Made by a program: the position numbers and the translations under genes
The notes under the pieces: model-generated
What the model saw: the letters and a program-made list of their open reading frames with translations, nothing else
What the model was told of the DNA's origin: nothing
Database searches by the model: none
In this document: positions 4,109 through 45,330 of the stretch, piece after piece
Position numbering within the stretch: the first letter of the stretch is position 1
Layout: the number at the start of each line of letters is the position of its first letter
Source: Candidatus Bathyarchaeota archaeon
GTDB lineage: Archaea > Thermoproteota > Bathyarchaeia > TCS64
Length of the DNA: 64,000 bases
NCBI GenBank assembly: GCA_963771885.1
Contig: CAVYVF010000023.1
Span: forward strand, 800,001-864,000
Direction of reading: 5' to 3'

Positions 4109-5044
4109 ATGAGTGCAAAAGCAACACGCGAAGCCTACGGCGAGTGGCTCGTCGAGACCGGTAAAACAAACAAGGACATAGTCGTCGTCGACGCCGACCT
4201 CGCCGAGTCAACGAAGACCATACTCTTCGCCAAGGCATACCCCGACAGATTCTTCGACGTAGGCGCCGCAGAGCAGAACCTCATAGACGTCGCAGCTGGC
4301 CTCGCAATCGGCGGTAAACGCGCCTTCGCCAGTAGCTTCGCCTACTTCCTCACCGGGCGCGCGTGGGACCAGATAAGAAACATCGTCGCCCACGACAACC
4401 TCAACGTGTGTCTAGTCGCAAGCCACGGCGGATTCTCCGCCGCCGCCGACGGCGCCAGCCACCTAGCGCTGCAAGACGTAGCGCTCATGCGAGTCATACC
4501 CAACATGCGCGTCGTCATCCCCGCCGACGCTGAGGAGACACGCAACGCACTCGACGCAGCAATCGCCTCGGGTGGACCATTCTACCTCCGCCTCCGCAGG
4601 GACAAGGAACCCATCCTCCAGAAGGGCTACAGATTCAAACTCGGCAGGACTGAAACGATGCGCGACGGCACCGACGTCACCATCGCCGCCTACGGCTCAA
4701 TGGTCGACGCCTCCCTCAAGGCAGCAGCCATCCTCAAGGAGAAGAAGATCGAGGCACGCGTCCTCAACGTCCACACAGTCAAGCCACTCGACACAGAGTC
4801 CCTAACCGCCGCTGCCAGGGCTACAGGCTCAGTCATCACGGTCGAGGACCACTCCATCCTCGGAGGCCTCGGCGGAGCCGTAGCTGAGGAACTCTCCGAG
4901 AGCTACCCCGTACCAGTCAAGCGCCTCGGCGCACCCGACGTCTACGGCGGATCGAGCAGGAACACAGACTCATTCCTCAAAGAGTTCGGCCTCACACCTG
5001 AGGGCATCGCCACCTCTGCGGAGCAGGTCTGCAGGCGCAGGTAG
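4109..5044 (+). CDS. Transketolase, C-terminal subunit
   Basis: TREAYG, DADLAEST, AEQNL, DGASH, VKPLD, EDHSILGGLG. Confidence 0.95.
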   Translation: MSAKATREAYGEWLVETGKTNKDIVVVDADLAESTKTILFAKAYPDRFFDVGAAEQNLIDVAAGLAIGGKRAFASSFAYFLTGRAWDQIRNIVAHDNLNVCLVASHGGFSAAADGASHLALQDVALMRVIPNMRVVIPADAEETRNALDAAIASGGPFYLRLRRDKEPILQKGYRFKLGRTETMRDGTDVTIAAYGSMVDASLKAAAILKEKKIEARVLNVHTVKPLDTESLTAAARATGSVITVEDHSILGGLGGAVAEELSESYPVPVKRLGAPDVYGGSSRNTDSFLKEFGLTPEGIATSAEQVCRRR

Positions 5045-5084
5045 GCGCACACGTTTTTTAACCCCCTCCACCAAATCCAATCCC

Positions 5085-5447
5085 ATGTTCTGGCTCGAAG
5101 TCGACTTCAAGACCCAGACGGCGACCCTCCACAGGGACGACTGCATCCACATCAAGCCCGAGGCGACCGACCGCAAAGGCGTAAACACGATGAAGGAGGA
5201 CGGCGGCTGGCTCAGCTTCTCCTCCGTCGGCGAGGCGATGAGGTATCATAAGACACAGAGGCTCAACGGCGAGGTCCAGGCGTGCCTTCTCTGCAAACCA
5301 CTCAACCACATCGCTGACGTCGCGATGGCTGGCCTCGACATAAACACGCCACGGACAGGATGCGACGCCTGTGGCACACGAGTCGATGTCCTAGACACGA
5401 AGTCAAGCTACCGCCGACTGATAGACAGGCTCCTCGGACCAAAGTAG
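5085..5447 (+). CDS. Hypothetical Cys/His-rich, likely Zn-binding protein
   Basis: HRDDCIH, CLLC and CDAC motifs; codon usage like neighbours. Confidence 0.6.
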   Translation: MFWLEVDFKTQTATLHRDDCIHIKPEATDRKGVNTMKEDGGWLSFSSVGEAMRYHKTQRLNGEVQACLLCKPLNHIADVAMAGLDINTPRTGCDACGTRVDVLDTKSSYRRLIDRLLGPK

Positions 5448-6623
5448 CTACTCGACGCCGAGGACATCCCCTGCAAGAACGGCAAAGACGCGCGCCGCCT
5501 CCTCAACCTTACTCAAGGCGACGTGCTCGTCGGGCGTGTGGCTGAGCCGAGGATCGCCTGGGCCGTAGAGGACCGTCGGTATCTTCGCGTCCCTGACTAA
5601 CCAAGCGGCGTCCGTCCCCGCCGCCTTACCGAAGAGCTTCGGCCTGAAGCCGGTCCTAGCCTCGACGACCTTGACGAGGCTCTGCACGACTAAGGCATCG
5701 GGATTGACCTCCATAGGAGGCCACTCCTCCTGTACCTTAAATGAGGCGTCGATCGTCGGGTCCTTCGCCTTAGCCCTAGCGATAGCGTCCTCTATCTGCC
5801 TCCGCGCGAACTCAGGCGTCTCACTCGGAAGTATCCGCCTGTCAATCTCAATCCTGCACTGGTCCGGGATGACATTATTCTTGGTCCCGCCGCCTATCGT
5901 CGTGACACTAAGGACGGGCTGGGGAACGTCGAAGAGCGGGTTCCAGCCCTCGAGCTCGATCTCCTTAAGGGCAGTCATGATTGTGTGCATTTTATCGATG
6001 GCGTTTACACCAAGGTGAGGGCGTGACGCGTGGCTCCCCTTCCCCCTCGTAGTTATCTCGGCCCAGATGATGCCCTTGTGAGCAATCTCGACGCGGAGGT
6101 CCGTGGGCTCTGAGACAACCGCCATATCGGCCTTGAGGCCCCTCTCGATCAGGTGGCGGGTGCCCTTCACACTTCCAGTCTCCTCGTCAGCGACCGCCGT
6201 TATCAGCAGGTCGCCCTTGAGCCTTGCACCGGATTTGACAATCGCCTCGGCGGCGGCGACCATCGAGGCGACGCCCGACTTCATATCCGCCGTTCCGCGC
6301 CCGTAGAGCTTCCCGTCCACAATCTCGCCGCCGAATGGGTCCCTCGTCCACCCATTCCCCGCCGGCACCACATCGATGTGACCATTGTAGAGGAGCACTG
6401 GCGACCCACGTGTCCCCTTGAGGCGAGCGATGACGTTTGTACGCCCCACCTCCTTCTCGACCAGCTCCACGTCGAGGCCAAGTTCCCTCAGCTTATTGGC
6501 GACCACCTCGGCGCACCCCCTCTCCCCTCCGGGCGGGTTGACGCTAGCCTCCCTGATCATGTCCCTCAGCAGATCCCTGACTGACGACCCGTCGACGAAA
6601 TCAGCCAAACTCTTAGTGTCCAA
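5448..6623 (-). CDS. M20 family ArgE/DapE-like deacylase
   Basis: NGHIDVVP, GRGTADMKSG, DEETG, SEPT, SHTPDEHV. Confidence 0.92.
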   Translation of the reverse strand: MDTKSLADFVDGSSVRDLLRDMIREASVNPPGGERGCAEVVANKLRELGLDVELVEKEVGRTNVIARLKGTRGSPVLLYNGHIDVVPAGNGWTRDPFGGEIVDGKLYGRGTADMKSGVASMVAAAEAIVKSGARLKGDLLITAVADEETGSVKGTRHLIERGLKADMAVVSEPTDLRVEIAHKGIIWAEITTRGKGSHASRPHLGVNAIDKMHTIMTALKEIELEGWNPLFDVPQPVLSVTTIGGGTKNNVIPDQCRIEIDRRILPSETPEFARRQIEDAIARAKAKDPTIDASFKVQEEWPPMEVNPDALVVQSLVKVVEARTGFRPKLFGKAAGTDAAWLVRDAKIPTVLYGPGDPRLSHTPDEHVALSKVEEAARVFAVLAGDVLGVE

Positions 6624-6691
6624 TTCCTCGCCCTCAGAAGTTTTAATCGATAAGCGTCCTCTATTAATAAAAAGTCGTTGAGGCGAGTGAC

Positions 6692-31332: not shown

Positions 31333-31393
31333 TTTAACATATTATGTTAAAATCGACCCAATATGAGACAATTTTTTAATATCTTTATATTAA
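31333..31393. promoter_or_regulatory. Two palindromes upstream of the zinc-ribbon gene
   Basis: TTTAACATA-T-TATGTTAAA (perfect 9-1-9, 31333-31351) and TTAATAT-CTTT-ATATTAA (31376-31393, over the TATA-like box). Confidence 0.5.
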
Positions 31394-37979: not shown

Positions 37980-39197
37980 TTGATGGTCTCGGCTCGAAAG
38001 GTGTCCGTGGACGCAGTTCGCAGGCTTCAACTTGAGAAGCAGGGTGTAGGCGAGCCAACCAAGAAGGCGACTAAGAAGAGGATAAGGGAGACCATCGAGC
38101 GCCTCGGTTGCCTACAAATCGACACAATTAACGTCGTAGAGCGTGCCCACTACTTCACACTCTGGACGCGTCTCGGCCAGTACAGGAAGGATGATCTCTA
38201 CAAGCTAGCGTACGAGGATCGGAGCGTCTTCGAGGGGTGGGGACATGCTATGTGCTACATGCCCATGGACCACTGGCGATACCTCATAGCCGCGAACAAG
38301 GAGCGGGCACACAGCAAGGTCATACACACCGGCTGGTTTAGCCGCGTCCCAGCCGACGTCGTCGACTCCGTCCTCGAACGTGTCAAGAATGAGGGGCCGC
38401 TTGGCAGCGCCGATTTTGAGGGGAAGAAGCCGAGCGGAGGCTGGTGGGGGTGGAAACCACAGAAGCGCGCCCTCGAGGCACTCTTCAGCGCGGGCGACCT
38501 TATGGTCACGCGTCGAGATGGCTTCCAGAGGATATACGACCTTACCGAGCGCGTGCTGCCCAGCGGCGTCGACGCGTCAGAGCCAACGGCGGAGGAGCGG
38601 AACAGGTTCTTCGCCAAGCGCACGCTGGGGTCGCTTGGTGCCACGAAGCCAACCGACGTAAAGTTCTACTACCACTCTTGGTGCGTAAAGTTCAAGCTGG
38701 CAACGAAGGATGTGCAAGCACTCCTCGATGGTCTCGCCGCGGAGGGCGTCGCCGAGAAGCTGAGCGTAGATGGGCTCAAGACTCCTTACTATTGCCTCGC
38801 CGAGGATGCGACCCGCCTCGAGGGGCTCGAGAAGGAGTGGCGATACGGTGGCGTTCGCCTCATCAACTACTTCGACAGCATGCTCTGGCACGCCGACAGG
38901 TTAAATTCCCTCTTCGGGTTCGAACGCGCCCTCGAGGTCTACCTCAAACCCGAGCAGAGGAAGTACGGCTACTACAGCGTGCCCATCCTCTACGGCGATA
39001 GACTCGTTGGGCGCCTTGACCCCAAGGCAGACCGCAAGGAGAAGAAGCTCATAGTGCGGGGTCTCTGGTACGAGGAAGGATTCAAACCCGACGAAGAATA
39101 CAAGGACGCGTTCGGAAAGACGCTTGATGACTTCGCCAAGTTCAACGGCGCCGAGGAAATAGATTGGCGCCTAGAAAAGACGCCTACTTCTGCTTGA
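37980..39197 (+). CDS. YcaQ/AlkZ family DNA crosslink glycosylase (wHTH)
   Basis: LQIDTINVVERAHY (QxD), GFQRIYDL, EVYLKPEQRKYGYY, GRLDPKADR. Confidence 0.93.
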   Translation: MMVSARKVSVDAVRRLQLEKQGVGEPTKKATKKRIRETIERLGCLQIDTINVVERAHYFTLWTRLGQYRKDDLYKLAYEDRSVFEGWGHAMCYMPMDHWRYLIAANKERAHSKVIHTGWFSRVPADVVDSVLERVKNEGPLGSADFEGKKPSGGWWGWKPQKRALEALFSAGDLMVTRRDGFQRIYDLTERVLPSGVDASEPTAEERNRFFAKRTLGSLGATKPTDVKFYYHSWCVKFKLATKDVQALLDGLAAEGVAEKLSVDGLKTPYYCLAEDATRLEGLEKEWRYGGVRLINYFDSMLWHADRLNSLFGFERALEVYLKPEQRKYGYYSVPILYGDRLVGRLDPKADRKEKKLIVRGLWYEEGFKPDEEYKDAFGKTLDDFAKFNGAEEIDWRLEKTPTSA

Positions 39198-39960
39198 TGA
39201 TGCGGGTGGTGAGCTTCGGCTCGCCACGGACAGACTTTACGGCCTCGACCGCCTCCTTCACCGCCTCGTCATCGCCGTCGAGGAGGAAGAGCTTGGAGCC
39301 CTCTGCGCCGTCGATGCCGCCGCCCCCGATCGGGACGACCTCGACGCCGAAGAGCTCCTTGAACGCCTCCATCTCGGTGATTATGTAGCCGCCTACTACC
39401 ATCATGCCGCACTTGACGTCGAGTGCTATGTCGACCTTGTTTATGCCCATGCGGTTTGCGGCGTCAGTGAGGTTGATAGGGACGAGCTTCTCGAGGCCAG
39501 CCGCGATAATGGTTGTTATTCCGTTGCTCGTGAGGTAGCCCCAGACGGCGCCGATTGTTCCGCCGCCAACTCCGCCTAGGAGGATGCCGGCCTGGCCGAA
39601 GGGATCGATGGCGTTGGCGCCTTTGATGAAGATGTCGCCTGGCCCCATGTCCTTGAGGTACTCGCCGAGCTCGGGAACCTTTGCCGTCTTGACCTTGCCC
39701 TTCTGGATGACGGTGTGGTCGCCGCGGCCCTTTGCCTCGGTGATCTGAAGGCCGTCCTTAGTGACGACGCCGGCTGTGAACATACCCTTTTCTTTGATCT
39801 CCTTGCCGAGGAGCTCCTCGAGGACGTAGGCATTCGTTGTGCTCGTGGCGACGATAATTGTTCCATTCTCCTTCGCGAGCTGGACTATCGGCATGTGGGC
39901 GATCGCCTTGGCGATCAGCCTCTTCCCCTCGGATGGGGTGAGTACTACCTCTGCTAGCAA
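39184..39960 (-). CDS. Conserved hypothetical protein
   Basis: LTPSEGKRLIAKA, TTNAYV, IKGANAID, GLEKLVP, ITEMEA, GGIDGAEGS. Confidence 0.8.
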   Translation of the reverse strand: MLAEVVLTPSEGKRLIAKAIAHMPIVQLAKENGTIIVATSTTNAYVLEELLGKEIKEKGMFTAGVVTKDGLQITEAKGRGDHTVIQKGKVKTAKVPELGEYLKDMGPGDIFIKGANAIDPFGQAGILLGGVGGGTIGAVWGYLTSNGITTIIAAGLEKLVPINLTDAANRMGINKVDIALDVKCGMMVVGGYIITEMEAFKELFGVEVVPIGGGGIDGAEGSKLFLLDGDDEAVKEAVEAVKSVRGEPKLTTRIIKQK

Positions 39961-40222
39961 GTCAAATACACCGGTTCTTATGGTAGCCTCGGGGCGATCC
40001 ATTTAAAAACTTAGCTAAACAAAGCTCAGCAATGCCCCTTATCTTCGGTCTTCTGTAAAGGAAAGGTGCCCTAATACATAATCCGAATAATAATATCACA
40101 TAATACTCGGGGAATGGTAGCCTCCACGCGAGCGACTTGAGGTAAACGGAAAACACCGGATGTAGTTAGATGCCGTTTTTAGCTGGAGCATGTAAATCGT
40201 CACAGCGCAACGGAGACGCACG

Positions 40223-41038
40223 TTATACTGCGCTCTGCTCCGCCAGCGCCTCGGCGAATATTTCGCCGAACTCGGTGAGGCTGATGACCTTCATCTTGCT
40301 CCCCTTCTCGGCGTCGATAAGTCCCTTCATCTCTAGCTTCGTGACGATGCGGCTGAACTTGTTTCGGAGGGTTGAGCTCGCCGCCTTGTGGCCGAACCAG
40401 CGGATGATATCGCTTATGGACTCTGCCTCGCCGCCGTTCTCTCGAAGGAGTATGAGGAGCTTCTTCTCCCTGTCCCATTCTTTCTCCTCATGCTTTGTAT
40501 TTGGCTCGAGGCGGTAGCCGGGGAGCTGTATCTCCTTTGGCTCCTTGCTAGCCTGGTTTCGGGCGTTTTCGAACCACTTTTCGAACTGTGGGTCGCCTAC
40601 TTTGCCCGTTACGTACCACGCGGAGCGCTCTGGGGGGACGCTGTAGACGCGTGCGTTACGGAACATGAGGGCGACTGTGAGGCTGACGCCCTGGGTGATG
40701 TCGGTTGTGCTGGTGACGTCGATGAGAACCTCCTCGCCCGAGGCTCTTGCCATATTTACAACGCCGTAGATTGCCTTGAACGCGCTGCGGTGGTCCATAG
40801 GGTCGAAGCCTATGAGCTCGGGGTCAAGTATCTCGAGCTTGTCGCGTAGCTCCTCAGCGTTCTTCTGGCTCATGTAACTGAATACTGCGGTCTCATCTGT
40901 AGCCTTGGCGTTACTGTAGAGCAGATATAGCTTGGTTATGCCGTGGTGTTTGCTCCAGTATCGTATGCCGTCGAAGGGGCGGCGGAAGTGTGTGCCCACG
41001 AGAGCGACTATAATTGTCATATTAACCCCGGCTTTCAC
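40223..41038 (-). CDS. CARF-like Rossmann domain plus C-terminal winged-helix regulator (DUF6293/Csa3-like)
   Basis: IIVALVG, KLYLLYS, VLIDVTSTT, VYSVPP; wHTH SISDIIR...SRIVTKLEMKGLI...KVISLTEFG. Confidence 0.7.
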   Translation of the reverse strand: MKAGVNMTIIVALVGTHFRRPFDGIRYWSKHHGITKLYLLYSNAKATDETAVFSYMSQKNAEELRDKLEILDPELIGFDPMDHRSAFKAIYGVVNMARASGEEVLIDVTSTTDITQGVSLTVALMFRNARVYSVPPERSAWYVTGKVGDPQFEKWFENARNQASKEPKEIQLPGYRLEPNTKHEEKEWDREKKLLILLRENGGEAESISDIIRWFGHKAASSTLRNKFSRIVTKLEMKGLIDAEKGSKMKVISLTEFGEIFAEALAEQSAV

Positions 41039-41274
41039 TGTATATTATACGGATTGTAACTACATATGATTGAATATATAAAATGTTGTAGATATTTGAG
41101 ATAATCATTAGACGATTACGTAATAATGGGACAATCCGTTTTTAGTTGAGCTAAAAGTGATTGTCACGTTTAATCGATATTCGGAGTATTATGAATGCTG
41201 TGGACACGTTCTTATAGCGCGCGGGTTCAGGATGTCTCTATCTATCTCAGTCAACTCCATCGGTGAATGATGCT

Positions 41275-41538
41275 ATGAGTGAATCGAAGTCCGTCGCGAA
41301 GGTCTACTCCCTCCCAGATTGTAAAAAATGTGAGATTCTTAAGGCGTATATGAAGGAGAAAGGGATACCCTTTGAGGCCAAGTGGTTCGACACGGAGGCT
41401 CAGACGGAGTTCGTCATGTTGAACATGTTTGGCAACCCCCCGGTTCTCGTGATGGGTGATCGCTTGGCGTCGGCGGAGAACATGTTCCCCCTTGGGGAGC
41501 TGAGCGAGGAAGCGGTGAGGAGTGTTTTGAATGCTTAA
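41275..41538 (+). CDS. nrdH: NrdH/glutaredoxin-like protein
   Basis: VYSLPDCKKCEILK CxxC, NPPVL; overlaps the nrdD start. Confidence 0.8.
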   Translation: MSESKSVAKVYSLPDCKKCEILKAYMKEKGIPFEAKWFDTEAQTEFVMLNMFGNPPVLVMGDRLASAENMFPLGELSEEAVRSVLNA

Positions 41539-43792
41539 GAGGGGCAGGGATCTTCCGGTCGGTCAGACTAACATGGAGCAGTTCTACAGGGCTGAGCGCC
41601 TGTGGAAGGGCATGCCGATGGTGCGCACCACCGACGGCTACCTTGTGGAGTGGAACAAGGCGAGGATAGTGGATCAGCTCGTCCGCGAGACTGAGCTGGC
41701 TGAGACCATGTTCGGCATCCAGCCTCTCAGCCCGTTGAAGGCGGAGAAGCTGAGCGCCGAGGTCGAGAGGCGCATCAAACTCTTCAAGCCCAAGGTCGTC
41801 TCCGGCCCAATGGTGAGGGAGATCACGAACAATGTGCTCCTCGAGTGGAGCGAGTCGGAGAACATGCCCGAGCTGCAGGTCTTCAGGAACATCCTGACTC
41901 GTGTCGGTGTGCCTGTGGTTGACGCGTACGAGATCGACACGGGCAGCGGCTTCGAGGCGAAGGAGAACGCGAATCTTCAGCCGAACCCGGAGACGGTGCA
42001 TAAGAAGAAGGCGGACAGGCTCAGTAAGGAGCAGTACCTGCTTCTGATGGACCCGACGCTAGCGACGGCGCACCACCAGGGTGACATTCACATCCACACG
42101 CTGGAGTACTTCGGCAGCCGTCCCTTCTGTCAGGACTGGGACCTGAGGTACTTCCTCTACTACGGGCTCATCCCCGATGGCTCGGGCTTCAGGAGCAGCG
42201 TGGCTGGTCCGGCGAAGCAGCCGGAGGTCGCCATACTGCACAGCGTGAAGGTGTTGGCTGCGGGGCAGACGAACTTCAGCGGCGGGCAGGGCTTCATGTA
42301 CTACACGATGTTCCTCGCCCCATTCCTACGCGGCTTGCCATATGAGAAGGTGAAGCAGCTCGCGCAGATGATGTTCTACGAGTTGACTCAGACCTACGTC
42401 ACCCGCGGCGGGCAACTCGTCTTCAGCAACATTCAGCTGCCGATGGGCGTACCGGACATATGGAAGAACGTCCCCGTGGTCATGAAGGGAAAGATAGGTC
42501 CTGACACCTATGGCAGCTACGAGGATGAGGTTCAGATGTTCTTCCGCGCCATCACCGAGGTGGCGCTTGAGGGGGACTACTGGGGCAAGCCATTCAACTT
42601 CCCAAAGAACGAGAACTACGTCTCCCCCGAGTTCTTCAAGCCGGAGTACGACGACCTCTGGATGCTCGTCCACGAGAGCGTGGGCAAGTTCGGGGCACCT
42701 TACTTCGACAACATGCTCCCGACATACCGCGGCTACGGCAACGGCATCAGCTGCTACCAGTGCTGCGCGTACCAGTTCGCGAACACCCCTGAGACTGACC
42801 CCAAGTTCCACGAGAAGCTGAACTTCGATGAGGGGCAGCACTTCAGCATGGGTGGCTGGCAAGTCGTCAGCCTCAACATGCCCCGCATGGCATACCGCGC
42901 CAACGGCGACTACGATAAACTGCTGGAGGCGGCGCAAGAGAACATGCGTATGGCGATCGACGTCTTCAAAGCGAAGCAGTTCTGGATGAAGAAAGCCCTC
43001 GCCAATAACATGGTGCCTTTCGCCACGCAGACCCCGAGGGATCCACGCACGGGGAAGGTGGGGCCGCCGGCCGTCGACTTCAGCGAGCTGGTGAACGTCA
43101 TCGGCGTCGTGGGAGTCAACGAGATGGTCCAGCACTTCACGGGGAAGCAGCTGCACGAGGACCCCGACTCCGTAAAGCTGGCGGTCAGGCTCCTGCTTGA
43201 CATGGAGAAGTACCGGAAGGGGCTTGAGATGAGGAACGGGTTCAAGGTTATGCTAGCCCGTACGCCCGCGGAGTCCACAGCGCAGACCTTCGCCGTGGCC
43301 GACCTCGTCTCGCCGTCCTACAAAAAGTTCGCCGTGAGCACGGTGAAGGGCGACATGGAGGGCGCAGCCTCGATATACAAGGGGAAGCGCGACTTGCCCG
43401 TCTACTACAGCAACGGCACACACACCTACGTTGGCGCCAAGATCCCACTCGGGAAGAAGATAGACATCGAGCACAAGTTCTTCCCCATACTCAGCGGCGG
43501 CAACATCTTCCATGCCTGGCTCGGCGAGGCGTGCAGCGACCCGGAGGCTCTCTACAAGTTGACTCAGCGCATCTGCAGGAACAGCCAGATCGGGTACTTC
43601 AGCTACACGAAGGACCTGACGGTGTGCAGCAAGTGCGCGAGCACATCGGCGGGGATGCTCAAGACGTGCCCTAGTTGCGGCTCGGAGAACGTGCGCTGGT
43701 GGAGCAGAATCACTGGGTACTACACGGACGTGACGGGGTGGAATGAGGGCAAGCGCGCGGAGCTCATGGACCGCTATCGCGTCACCATCTAA
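41531..43792 (+). CDS. nrdD: Class III anaerobic ribonucleoside-triphosphate reductase with ATP cone
   Basis: ATP cone VRTTDGYLVEWN, GDIHIH, RPFC, YQCC, TPAEST, CSKC..CPSC, SRITGY glycyl-radical motif. Confidence 0.97.
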   Translation: MLKRGRDLPVGQTNMEQFYRAERLWKGMPMVRTTDGYLVEWNKARIVDQLVRETELAETMFGIQPLSPLKAEKLSAEVERRIKLFKPKVVSGPMVREITNNVLLEWSESENMPELQVFRNILTRVGVPVVDAYEIDTGSGFEAKENANLQPNPETVHKKKADRLSKEQYLLLMDPTLATAHHQGDIHIHTLEYFGSRPFCQDWDLRYFLYYGLIPDGSGFRSSVAGPAKQPEVAILHSVKVLAAGQTNFSGGQGFMYYTMFLAPFLRGLPYEKVKQLAQMMFYELTQTYVTRGGQLVFSNIQLPMGVPDIWKNVPVVMKGKIGPDTYGSYEDEVQMFFRAITEVALEGDYWGKPFNFPKNENYVSPEFFKPEYDDLWMLVHESVGKFGAPYFDNMLPTYRGYGNGISCYQCCAYQFANTPETDPKFHEKLNFDEGQHFSMGGWQVVSLNMPRMAYRANGDYDKLLEAAQENMRMAIDVFKAKQFWMKKALANNMVPFATQTPRDPRTGKVGPPAVDFSELVNVIGVVGVNEMVQHFTGKQLHEDPDSVKLAVRLLLDMEKYRKGLEMRNGFKVMLARTPAESTAQTFAVADLVSPSYKKFAVSTVKGDMEGAASIYKGKRDLPVYYSNGTHTYVGAKIPLGKKIDIEHKFFPILSGGNIFHAWLGEACSDPEALYKLTQRICRNSQIGYFSYTKDLTVCSKCASTSAGMLKTCPSCGSENVRWWSRITGYYTDVTGWNEGKRAELMDRYRVTI

Positions 43793-43946
43793 ACTTTAAT
43801 ACTTACTTTTCATCACCGCAAGACTACTTATTTTAGGAATTTAATCACTGTCGTCCTCGCTTCTGTCGATTCTCGCTTATCAATCAGAGAGTAGAGCAGC
43901 TCACGCCGCTGCCTCAGCTTATATCTGCTGAACCAGATCATTTTCC

Positions 43947-45330
43947 ATGACCGACTTTTCGAAGGTTGATTGCTTCATCCTCGATAGGATGTCAGAGACG
44001 CGACTCCCCGGAGTGAGCCTCGCCGCCGTTGAGAACGGCAAGGTAGTCTACACCCGTGGCTATGGGTTGCGTGACGTGGCGAAGGGCAAGCCAGCGACTC
44101 CCGATACTATCTTCTGCATCGGGAGCATCACGAAGTCGTTCACCTGTATCGCTATAATGCAACTGGAGGAGAGGGGACTTCTTAGCGTCGACGACCCAGT
44201 GGAGAAGCACCTGCCAATCAGGCTCCACGCCAAAGGAAAGCCCGTTAAGATCAGGCACCTGATGAGTCATACCAGTGGCATTCCCGCGACGGCCTACGCG
44301 GAGGCGGCGATACGCAACGCGATGAAGTCGGCGGATACCTACCTACCCCTCGCGTCGGGGGCGGACATGTATACCTTCCTCGACGGCGCCGAGGAGTGGG
44401 CACACAACGAGCCAGGGGAACGCTGGTACTACCTCAATGAAGGCTTCCGCCTACTCGGCGAGATAGTGGAGAAGGTGAGCGGGGAGAAGTACGTCGACTA
44501 CATCAAGGATCACAGTACTCGACCCCCTCGGCATGGCTCGCAGCACCTTCAGCCCAGACGCCGTTGATGCTGATCCCGACGCTGCAACCCCTTACATTGT
44601 CACACGCACCGGCGAACAACTACCTAGCACCTACCCCTACGGCATCGTCGGCAGCGACGGCGGCCTCGTTAGCAGCGCCAACGAGATGGCGGAGTACCTC
44701 AAGATGCTCCTCAACAAGGGCAAGACGGGCAGGAAGCAAGTGCTATCAGCCGCCTCCCTCGCCGAGATGACGAAACCACGCATAAAGACCCCCGACCAGC
44801 CTTGGATCACCAAGACCGTGCGCCACTACGGCTACGGCCTCGGCATCAATGTGGACCCGAGCGGCCCCACGGTCATCAGCCATGGAGGCAGTGTCTCCAC
44901 CGCGACAGCCCAGATCGCCTTCGTCCCCGAGGAAGGCATCGGAGTCATCGTCCTCGCAAACGGCACCGGCTACCCCCTCGCCACCATCGCTGACTACGCC
45001 CTCGCCGCCCTAGCCGGCCGCAACCCCGACCAGCTTCCGGCTATACGCTTCGAAAACACACTCACCGACCTCACCGGCAACTACGAGACATACAAGCACA
45101 CAATGAAGGGACGCGTCACCCGCCGCGGCAGCATCCTCCAGCTCGACACGGGCGACAAGTACCGCGACGTCGCCGTCCCACTCATACCCCTCGACTGGGA
45201 GTCACCCACCAAGACCTTCGAATCCCCCACCGGCGAGCGCAAACAGATCGCCGAGTTCTATAAGATGGACGGCGAACAATACTTAATCTACGAGCGATAC
45301 AAGTTCAAGCGTGTAGGCAAGAACCCATAA
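43947..45330 (+). CDS. Serine hydrolase (beta-lactamase-like S12 peptidase, Pab87-like); frameshift near 44515
   Basis: GSITKS (SxxK), LMSHTSG, YLN; continues LGM...SHGG in the next frame. Confidence 0.88.

Follow-up and report, generated by a model that had tools for sequence, protein, structure and literature searches.

A CARF-winged-helix protein facing an anaerobic ribonucleotide reductase operon in Bathyarchaeia: a candidate regulator of dNTP synthesis outside CRISPR defence

CARF domains are, to our knowledge, known almost only as receptors for the messengers of type III CRISPR systems. CARF proteins form homodimers whose ligand pocket lies at the two-fold axis, and in some of them the domain is joined to a winged helix-turn-helix (wHTH), as in Csa3/Csa3a (Sso1445; PDB 2WTE, 6W11, 6WXQ), a transcription factor of Sulfolobales associated with CRISPR-Cas of type I-A or III, and in the ring nucleases Sis0811 and SSO1393 (PDB 7PQ2, 3QYF). 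The transcriptional control of ribonucleotide reductase (RNR) is well understood in bacteria through NrdR, a repressor built from a Zn-ribbon and an ATP-cone (TIGR00244), and is hardly understood in archaea. Csa3 binds cyclic tetra-adenylate (cA4) through two motifs, Phi-G-F-(N/D)-x-z-F in the loop between strand 1 and helix 1 and small-small-G-Phi-R in the loop between strand 4 and helix 4 (PMC8844856). The polar motif that follows strand 4 in CARF domains, [DN]x[ST]xxx[RK], ends in a lysine or arginine, and families without this residue may bind other ligands (Makarova 2014, PMC4012209). HFX_2341 of Haloferax mediterranei, the only studied member of its family, has been characterised as a global repressor that also affects cas genes (PMC11434293). 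Searches of the open literature found no description of an RNR-linked CARF regulator.

The window analysed here, a stretch of 64,000 nucleotides from a Bathyarchaeial genome, contains a CARF-wHTH protein encoded next to RNR genes. Its gene (40223..41020, minus strand) encodes 265 aa from the ATG at 41020 plus a stop codon, and the open frame reaches a GTG at 41038 (271 aa). On the opposite strand follow a gene for an nrdH-like redoxin of glutaredoxin fold with a CKKC motif (41263..41538, plus strand; likely start ATG 41275) and nrdD1 (41531..43792, plus strand), whose product is a class III (anaerobic) RNR (TIGR02487, E 3e-149; PF13597, 6.7e-138) carrying the glycyl-radical motif SRITGYY and a weak ATP-cone signal (E 0.049). 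The first-pass annotation had pointed out this divergent layout and the Rossmann-like N-terminus and C-terminal wHTH of the protein, and our analysis confirmed the observation. The CARF domain has the Rossmann-like fold and comprises residues 1 to about 170 (40511..41020, minus strand); the part C-terminal to it is encoded at 40226..40495 (minus strand), and the order is CARF, then a wHTH of MarR-like type; an effector nuclease is absent. Both the CARF fold and the wHTH are real. A curated CARF profile, PADLOC CARF3--CARF PDLC01866, matched residues 7-261 at E 2.6e-11 (profile positions 1-203 of 207); seven more CARF3 models of PADLOC also matched. A profile search of the PDB with the sequence alone gave no significant match (best FliG, E 0.026; Csx1 6qzq, E 0.24). 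The nearest named Pfam families were HFX_2341_N (PF19810, E 7.8e-6) and DUF6293_C (PF22665, E 3.6e-5), both below their gathering thresholds (26.8 bits where 30 are required, and 24.6 where 27 are); one or both of these thresholds are passed by several representatives that match the regulator's profile at E 1e-61 to 1e-8, and one orthologue cluster bears the NCBI name 'HFX_2341 family transcriptional regulator domain-containing protein'. Like the regulator, HFX_2341 is chromosomal, vertically inherited and unlinked to CRISPR, whereas the abstract and Results of the study that describes it, to which our comparison is confined, contain no link to RNR (PMC11434293). The Bathyarchaeial protein adds an RNR-linked variant to proteins of the Csa3/HFX_2341 kind, and, combining a CRISPR-type ligand sensor with a DNA-binding part, it likely switches the adjacent RNR genes under the control of a small molecule.

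The putative ligand pocket differs from that of Csa3. The two proteins share 13-15% identity, and the regulator is about 55 residues longer, with an extra conserved linker, LPGYRLEP. Its loop after strand 1 reads V8-G9-T10-H11-F12-R13-R14 instead of cA4 motif 1, and its loop after strand 4 reads I/V102-T103-S104-T105-T106-N/D107, so that T-S-T-T-N/D stands where motif 2 would be. Because both motifs are absent, the sensing of cyclic oligoadenylates in the manner of Csa3 is disfavoured. The terminal K/R of the general strand-4 motif is also missing, as residues 102-112 contain no basic residue, while D101-x-T103-S104-T105-T106 is invariant among orthologues and position 107 is N (D in the window protein); a paralogue linked to ssb has K at the position where the regulator has none. 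The ligand is probably not cA4 bound in the Csa3 way, and our most plausible guess is a nucleotide or nucleotide-derived metabolite. Crn1-like ring nucleases have a conserved Lys/Trp and a catalytic GxS/T motif, which the G9-T10-H11 loop resembles but does not fit, and, in distinction to Sis0811 and SSO1393, no source of cyclic oligoadenylates was found in the regulator's genome. This genome is 92% complete, and no Cas10 (Csm1 or Cmr2) and, in a crude scan, no CRISPR array was found in it; the sole cas trace found is a Cas1 fragment about 545 kb away, and the earlier statement that no cas gene lies within the window holds. The window contains no defence gene either. The gene is single-copy in its genome and occurs in 63 of the 70 genomes of its own family, in the manner of a core gene. 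For these reasons, a role in antiviral signalling, as a Csa3-like oligoadenylate sensor or a Crn1-like ring nuclease that couples infection to dNTP supply, appears very improbable.

The spacer between the divergent genes carries a conserved set of elements, in which the box TTTGRGACAATYC, its inverted copy and GTATTAT lie at fixed spacing between two TATA-like boxes. The first TATA-like box, AATATATAAAA (41073..41083, minus strand), is the predicted promoter element of the regulator, about 50-53 nt from its start codon, and ATAT[AT]TAA occurs at this fixed distance in 46 of 49 aligned spacers; the second, TTATAG (41212..41217, plus strand), is the predicted nrdH-nrdD promoter, and by a loose pattern a TATA-like element occupies its aligned position in 49/49. 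Block A, TAATGGGACAATCCG (41124..41138, plus strand; PWM score 16.4; family consensus TTTGRGACAATYC), is a candidate operator half-site that reads GACA[AT][AT] in all 49 spacers and GACAAT in 41 of them. Block B, GTGATTGTCAC (41157..41167, plus strand), is an inverted copy of block A at 28 nt centre to centre, takes the form GTGATTAT/GTGACYAT in other clades, and was found in 45/49 spacers by a loose pattern. Block C, GTATTAT (41186..41192, plus strand), is the most invariant element of the spacer (GTATTA in 48/49); it lies 55-57 nt downstream of block A, a spacing kept in 43/49, and is also retained in a locus whose regulator is 52% identical (L105) and in genome G060. An extra box copy, ATTTGAGATAATCAT (41094..41108, plus strand), ranks 7th among 4.9 million genome positions by PWM score (18.3) and, in the spacer alignment, is conserved in the closest relatives only. 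Because Rfam gave no family in 40900-41700 at E<=1, the spacer or leader appears to lack a known riboswitch. In other clades the nrdH leader contains TAGTGT-N18-ACACTA, conserved in 15/15 sequences and absent in the window's own clade. An RNA stem-loop at this place is not supported (only one of six pairs with a compensatory change; consensus -3.3 kcal/mol), and the element may be a DNA site. Contigs from RNA libraries leave 41028-41308 uncovered, a gap that carries no conclusion.

Taken together, we propose that the protein, a Csa3-like combination of CARF and winged helix, controls transcription in response to a ligand. Its targets would be its own gene, the divergent nrdH-nrdD operon and, in a subset of genomes, another anaerobic RNR operon; we give this explanation about an even chance of being right. 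A dimer would bind the spacer boxes through its wHTH domains, and a small molecule bound in the CARF pocket, whose residues (G9-T10-H11..R13-R14 and D101-x-T-S-T-T) are strictly conserved, would alter DNA binding and thereby tune RNR transcription. Since the boxes are situated upstream of each of the two TATA-like boxes, the protein would act slightly more probably by activation or in an architectural way than by simple occlusion.

The adjacency to RNR genes is conserved throughout one Bathyarchaeial order: of the 52 loci that could be evaluated there, 49 show the divergent pairing, and in rearranged loci (L045/G048, G070) the regulator again faces an RNR gene, a different one. Within one order, such adjacency could be due to inheritance alone, because the whole neighbourhood is syntenic: the block of DS272, AlkZ and Cbf5 accompanies the same loci, with DS272 downstream in 53/57. 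DS272 belongs to no Pfam or NCBIfam family and has only hypothetical clusters in the Atlas; its structural model (pLDDT 78.8) weakly resembles RpiA/ribose-1,5-bisphosphate isomerase (E 3.7e-4, TM 0.34). We considered recoding in DS272 homologues and discarded it, because the in-frame stops fall upstream of the real start. The synteny leaves a less probable alternative, in which the regulator acts broadly, as a general or global transcription factor like HFX_2341, its position beside RNR genes is inherited, and the boxes are autoregulatory sites or ordinary promoter elements. Several observations fit it. G060 (95% complete) keeps the regulator without an RNR neighbour and has no NrdD1-type match, and both there and in L024/G213 the regulator and blocks A and C are retained where the RNR neighbour is absent, so that the spacer boxes may serve only the regulator's own promoter. 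The top genome-wide PWM matches precede unrelated genes (for example C23:413284, C2:470173 and window position 31361), the paralogues adjoin ssb instead of RNR genes, and deletion of HFX_2341 in H. mediterranei had broad effects, altering many transport and metabolism genes (PMC11434293). What speaks against the global factor is that the new neighbour after rearrangement is again an RNR gene, that a different putative regulator fills the same slot in lineages without this one, and that another RNR promoter, not homologous to the first, carries the box as well.

This second promoter belongs to nrdD2-nrdG, upstream of which the block-A word was found in 6/6 genomes of one sub-clade; the six promoters are homologous to each other and thus do not count as six independent observations. 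The TTTGRGACAATYC box is missing in 17 of 18 nrdD promoters of genomes without the regulator, which speaks for the proposal. Other findings speak against it: in three regulator-bearing genomes with another NrdD2 sub-clade, the box is absent from all three nrdD2 promoters (scores 2.9-5.3); a weaker related word, TTTTGACAATC (scores 7.6-11.6), occurs in the nrdD2 promoters of one family that lacks the regulator; and the other RNR-related promoters of the window's genome (NrdD3-like, class II-like and a third nrdG) have no box.

The paralogues, 34-39% identical to the regulator, may point to a broader role, as they lie directly downstream of ssb in five of six loci and beside RNR genes in none of the six. 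In L101 and L102 an adjoining gene encodes an ATP-dependent DNA ligase, and in L100 Rad51/RadA is found at a distance of about 3 kb. Together with an AlkZ-like DNA glycosylase, encoded in the window some 1 kb away from the regulator, and the report that Csa3a activates DNA repair genes (PMC8844856), they would fit a regulator that answers replication stress or DNA damage through a wider programme of DNA replication and repair, with RNR, ssb and ligase genes among its targets and the RNR operon as the most visible one. However, the best ssb candidate in the window's genome has no block-A box upstream, the ssb-linked paralogue loci also lack the box (scores 4-10), and ssb is found in none of the 57 orthologue loci; we regard such a programme as unlikely.

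As for the relation to NrdR, the protein had been proposed as an archaeal NrdR analogue for lineages lacking NrdR. TIGR00244 indeed has no match in the window's genome, but, of 401 genomes of the class, 119 encode a true NrdR, with its gene directly upstream of nrdD2, and 17 genomes of the regulator's family have both proteins. We therefore dropped the idea of mutually exclusive alternatives; the regulator is better seen as a parallel system than as a substitute, because NrdR exists in the class and co-occurs with it. The distribution also disagrees with a general replacement, since NrdD is near-universal (379/401) and the regulator is found in 77/401. A PF19810 six-frame search of five regulator-less genomes gave one weak match and has little power, because it misses the regulator in its own genome. 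The proposed role resembles that of NrdR in that a small regulator that would sense a ligand is encoded beside RNR genes and may act through boxes at two RNR operons. The boxes of NrdR are paired partial palindromes about 15-16 bp apart (PMC13584703). The two proteins are not homologous and differ in fold, the regulator having neither Zn-ribbon nor ATP-cone. The original reading is thus supported in part: the CARF fold, the wHTH, the conserved adjacency and the box at a second RNR operon speak for it, while an NrdR analogue for lineages lacking NrdR does not fit. In families without the regulator, proteins composed of wHTH, ATP-cone and an NrdD-like part without the radical glycine are encoded directly upstream of nrdH-nrdD1. 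They occupy the equivalent position but are unrelated and are transcribed in the same direction as the operon, not divergently, and another conserved element, TACAGAATTTTATAC, is found in their promoters. Three regulator types alternate before Bathyarchaeial RNR operons.

A bolder reading, which we consider less likely than not, is that a CARF domain was recruited outside defence into a dedicated switch for dNTP synthesis, which binds GACAAT/GTATTAT boxes in front of two anaerobic RNR operons and senses a ligand of nucleotide type that is not cA4, and that it is one of three interchangeable RNR-dedicated regulators, with NrdR and the wHTH-ATP-cone-dead-NrdD protein, each travelling with its own RNR module. 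If this is true, the RNR-linked CARF-wHTH subfamily, whose pocket is strictly conserved but non-canonical, would offer a concrete example of a CARF domain that senses ligands for core metabolism. The system would also be tractable, because a single protein of 265 aa, some 250 bp of DNA and defined boxes could lead to the ligand and to the logic of dNTP control, and the alternation of regulator types before these operons allows the question to be approached comparatively. It would thereby bear on how dNTP synthesis is controlled in an abundant uncultured class of archaea.

Of the readings weighed, the most likely is that the regulator is a putative local transcription factor which controls anaerobic RNR operons and its own gene in response to a ligand; we give this about an even chance. 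It would resemble Csa3 and HFX_2341 in kind, while differing in its pocket and having no CRISPR link. No description of a CARF regulator linked to RNR turned up in a literature search. The source is a Bathyarchaeial metagenome-assembled genome (2.46 Mb, 23 contigs, 92% complete, 6.7% contaminated) that carries the regulator gene in single copy. Its ORF (40223-41038, minus strand) was judged real, and we placed the start at the ATG at 41020 because homologues are mostly 265 aa long (61-95% identity among the 120 homologues listed) and a possible start codon (ATG, TTG or GTG) aligns with residue 7 in 47 of the 49 related loci. Across a spacer of 224-254 nt (GC 0.35-0.36 vs 0.573 for the window) lies an nrdH-like gene with a glutaredoxin fold and a CKKC motif, whose family matches are below threshold (TIGR02196, E 1.5e-7; TIGR02194, E 1.2e-5) and which overlaps the class III RNR gene nrdD (TIGR02487, E 3e-149) by 8 nt. 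These ORFs and family matches, together with a scan of the 72 window ORFs that found no defence or cas genes, bear out the divergent layout without a cas gene in the window described in the first-pass annotation. In four metatranscriptome runs from a single sediment study, contigs of 95-99% identity cover the regulator gene's 5' half and extend across the nrdH-nrdD junction, with DNA carry-over possible and the contigs lacking transcript ends. A Pab87-type beta-lactamase-fold peptidase gene is present as two overlapping plus-strand ORFs, 43947-44567 (Beta-lactamase N-terminal part) and 44533-45330 (C-terminal part and Pab87 octamerisation domain), as a result of a frameshift, pseudogenisation or misassembly.

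Two Pfam families match the regulator below threshold, HFX_2341_N (26.8 bits, cut-off 30) and the winged helix DUF6293_C (24.6 bits, cut-off 27), and PADLOC CARF3 models match it end to end (E 2.6e-11). Against the whole chain, Sis0811/SSO1393 scored 14.4-15.2 over 195-201 residues and Csa3 scored 11.0, while a viral winged helix scored 10.9 against the C-terminal 88 residues; because of these profile matches and scores, the initial description as CARF-like plus wHTH is correct. The pocket loops V-G-T-H-F-R-R and T-S-T-T-N/D are invariant among orthologues and differ from the motifs Phi-G-F-(N/D)-x-z-F and small-small-G-Phi-R, which a passage of PMC8844856 assigns to cA4 binding by Csa3. The regulator has no basic residue after CARF strand 4, and a passage of Makarova et al. 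(PMC4012209) considers other ligands possible for CARF families without it; a Lys at this position is kept in the ssb-linked paralogues, unlike the RNR-linked orthologues. Cas10 was not found in the genome (92% complete), a crude scan of it gave no CRISPR array, and its sole cas trace is a Cas1 fragment ~545 kb away. A cOA or defence role for the regulator is, in our estimation, very improbable.

Among 57 related loci, 5 end too near the gene to judge, and nrdH and nrdD are divergent from the regulator at 217-285 nt in 49 of the 52 evaluable ones. Elsewhere, N's mask nrdH (L036), nrdH is reduced to a 5' remnant (L024), an extra ATP-cone NrdD2-type gene heads the divergent operon (L045, and likewise genome G048), or an NrdD2-type gene is the divergent neighbour (genome G070). 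Plain conservation alone proves little, since DS272 (the gene downstream of the regulator), AlkZ and Cbf5 are likewise syntenic around it, which favours a general regulator held beside RNR by synteny, a possibility we rate at some way below even. For this reason the rearranged loci (L045/G048, G070) carry weight. Evidence against a dedicated RNR link comes from genome G060 (95% complete), in which the retained regulator has a sugar-kinase-like gene upstream instead of an RNR neighbour and NrdD1-type matches are absent, and from paralogues (34-39% identity): in 5 of 6 loci these immediately follow an Ssb-like OB-fold gene, in none of the 6 are they beside RNR, and three have DNA ligase or Rad51/RadA nearby. 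A broader DNA-metabolism regulator seems to us unlikely.

The AlkZ-like DNA glycosylase gene (37980-39197, plus strand; PF06224, E 6e-64) lies ~1 kb away from the regulator, and the synteny of the two genes holds in most loci. DS272 (39184-40002, minus strand; 258-272 aa) is downstream of the regulator in 53 of 57 loci, truly starts ~15-18 residues inside its ORF and matched no family; its model has a weak likeness to the RpiA/ribose-1,5-bisphosphate isomerase/DeoR-C sugar-phosphate fold. In paralogue loci L099 and L101-L104 (families f16, f23), ssb and the regulator form an apparent gene pair, and an ATP-dependent DNA ligase gene follows directly in L101 and L102, split in L101 into overlapping minus-strand ORFs (4853-5521, 5470-6687).

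Alignment of 49 spacers revealed two TATA-like boxes, each ~50 nt from its own gene, and between them three conserved blocks at fixed spacing: block A (41124..41138), TTTGRGACAATYC, with GACA[AT][AT] in 49/49; block B (41157..41167), an inverted GTGATTRT; and block C (41186..41192), GTATTAT, in 48/49. The A-to-C distance is 55-57 nt in 43/49. When a PWM trained on block A alone was run over the whole genome, the promoter of the second RNR operon, nrdD2-nrdG (contig C1), ranked 5 of 4.9 million positions. This box, with an upstream AATTGTT, occurs in all 6 genomes of that NrdD2 sub-clade (scores 13.4-18.5), 5 of which have a detected regulator, the sixth genome being 75% complete. As controls, 13.4 was reached by just 0.9% of 223 AT-rich windows of 200 nt; regulator-less nrdH/nrdD1 promoters scored below 13.4 in 17 of 18 cases, with the different element TACAGAATTTTATAC instead; scores were 2.9-5.3 in three genomes that have the regulator and a different NrdD2 sub-clade; and seven regulator-less nrdD2 promoters scored 7.6-11.6, with the related TTTTGACAATC. 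The box was not found at the remaining RNR-related promoters of the genome, and unrelated genes follow the top genome-wide matches, which may be further targets or chance. Because blocks A and C persist in G060 and L024, which have no RNR operon, they belong at minimum to the regulator's own promoter, consistent with putative autoregulation.

The top matches (C23:413284, 22.4; C2:470173, 20.1; window 31361-31375, 18.8) sit in AT-rich intergenic DNA ahead of small genes, the last before an 85-aa Com-like Zn-ribbon ORF. NrdD2 of the source genome is split (C1:42643-43533 and 43538-44797, ORFs of 296 and 419 aa, then nrdG), either a disrupted gene or an assembly artefact; one in-frame stop occurs in the same region in several relatives in the search table. 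In 15 loci of other clades (within L016-L057), and not in the window's own clade, the stretch from the nrdH TATA-like box to the start codon contains an inverted repeat, TAGTGT-N18-ACACTA; as the repeat is conserved in sequence without covariation, it is more likely a candidate DNA site for a protein than a hairpin in the RNA.

Among 1.84 billion representative proteins, a profile search picked up no more than 82 relatives at E<=1e-3, of which 16 reached E<=1e-30. Of 401 Bathyarchaeial genomes sampled, 77 have the regulator, with orthologues in one order (f1 63/70, f2 1/1, f3 4/6, f4 1/1), homologues of 34-39% identity in f16 (2/5) and f23 (5/10), and none in the remaining families (e.g. f11 0/104, f26 0/59). 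NrdD (TIGR02487) is near-universal (379/401), and the NrdD1 type, our own label for the kind of enzyme encoded in the window, is found in 119/401, including regulator-less families (e.g. f29 16/18). The suggestion that the regulator substitutes for NrdR in archaea did not hold up: true NrdR (TIGR00244, above cut-off) is present in 119/401 genomes (f11 98/104, f1 18/70) and accompanies the regulator in 17 f1 genomes, so the latter is no stand-in for a missing NrdR. NrdR in some archaea is already noted in a passage of PMC9110341. Directly downstream of NrdR there is typically a second NrdD with an ATP-cone, labelled NrdD2 by us (e.g. L108, L109, L113-L116, L119, L122), and therefore NrdR-NrdD2 and CARF-wHTH-NrdH-NrdD1 modules coexist in the class.

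In regulator-less families, a 724-774 aa wHTH (DUF7347/ArsR-like), ATP-cone and NrdD-like protein, whose radical glycine is missing in 5/5 copies checked, is encoded directly upstream of and co-directionally with nrdH-nrdD1 (L123, L127-L129, L131-L139, L141; e.g. L133:825-3134, minus strand), and TACAGAATTTTATAC is conserved in the promoter that follows. An Lrp/AsnC-type protein fills this slot in one family. The occupation of the same slot by these proteins suggests that the nrdH-nrdD1 operon is habitually accompanied by a local regulator of varying type.
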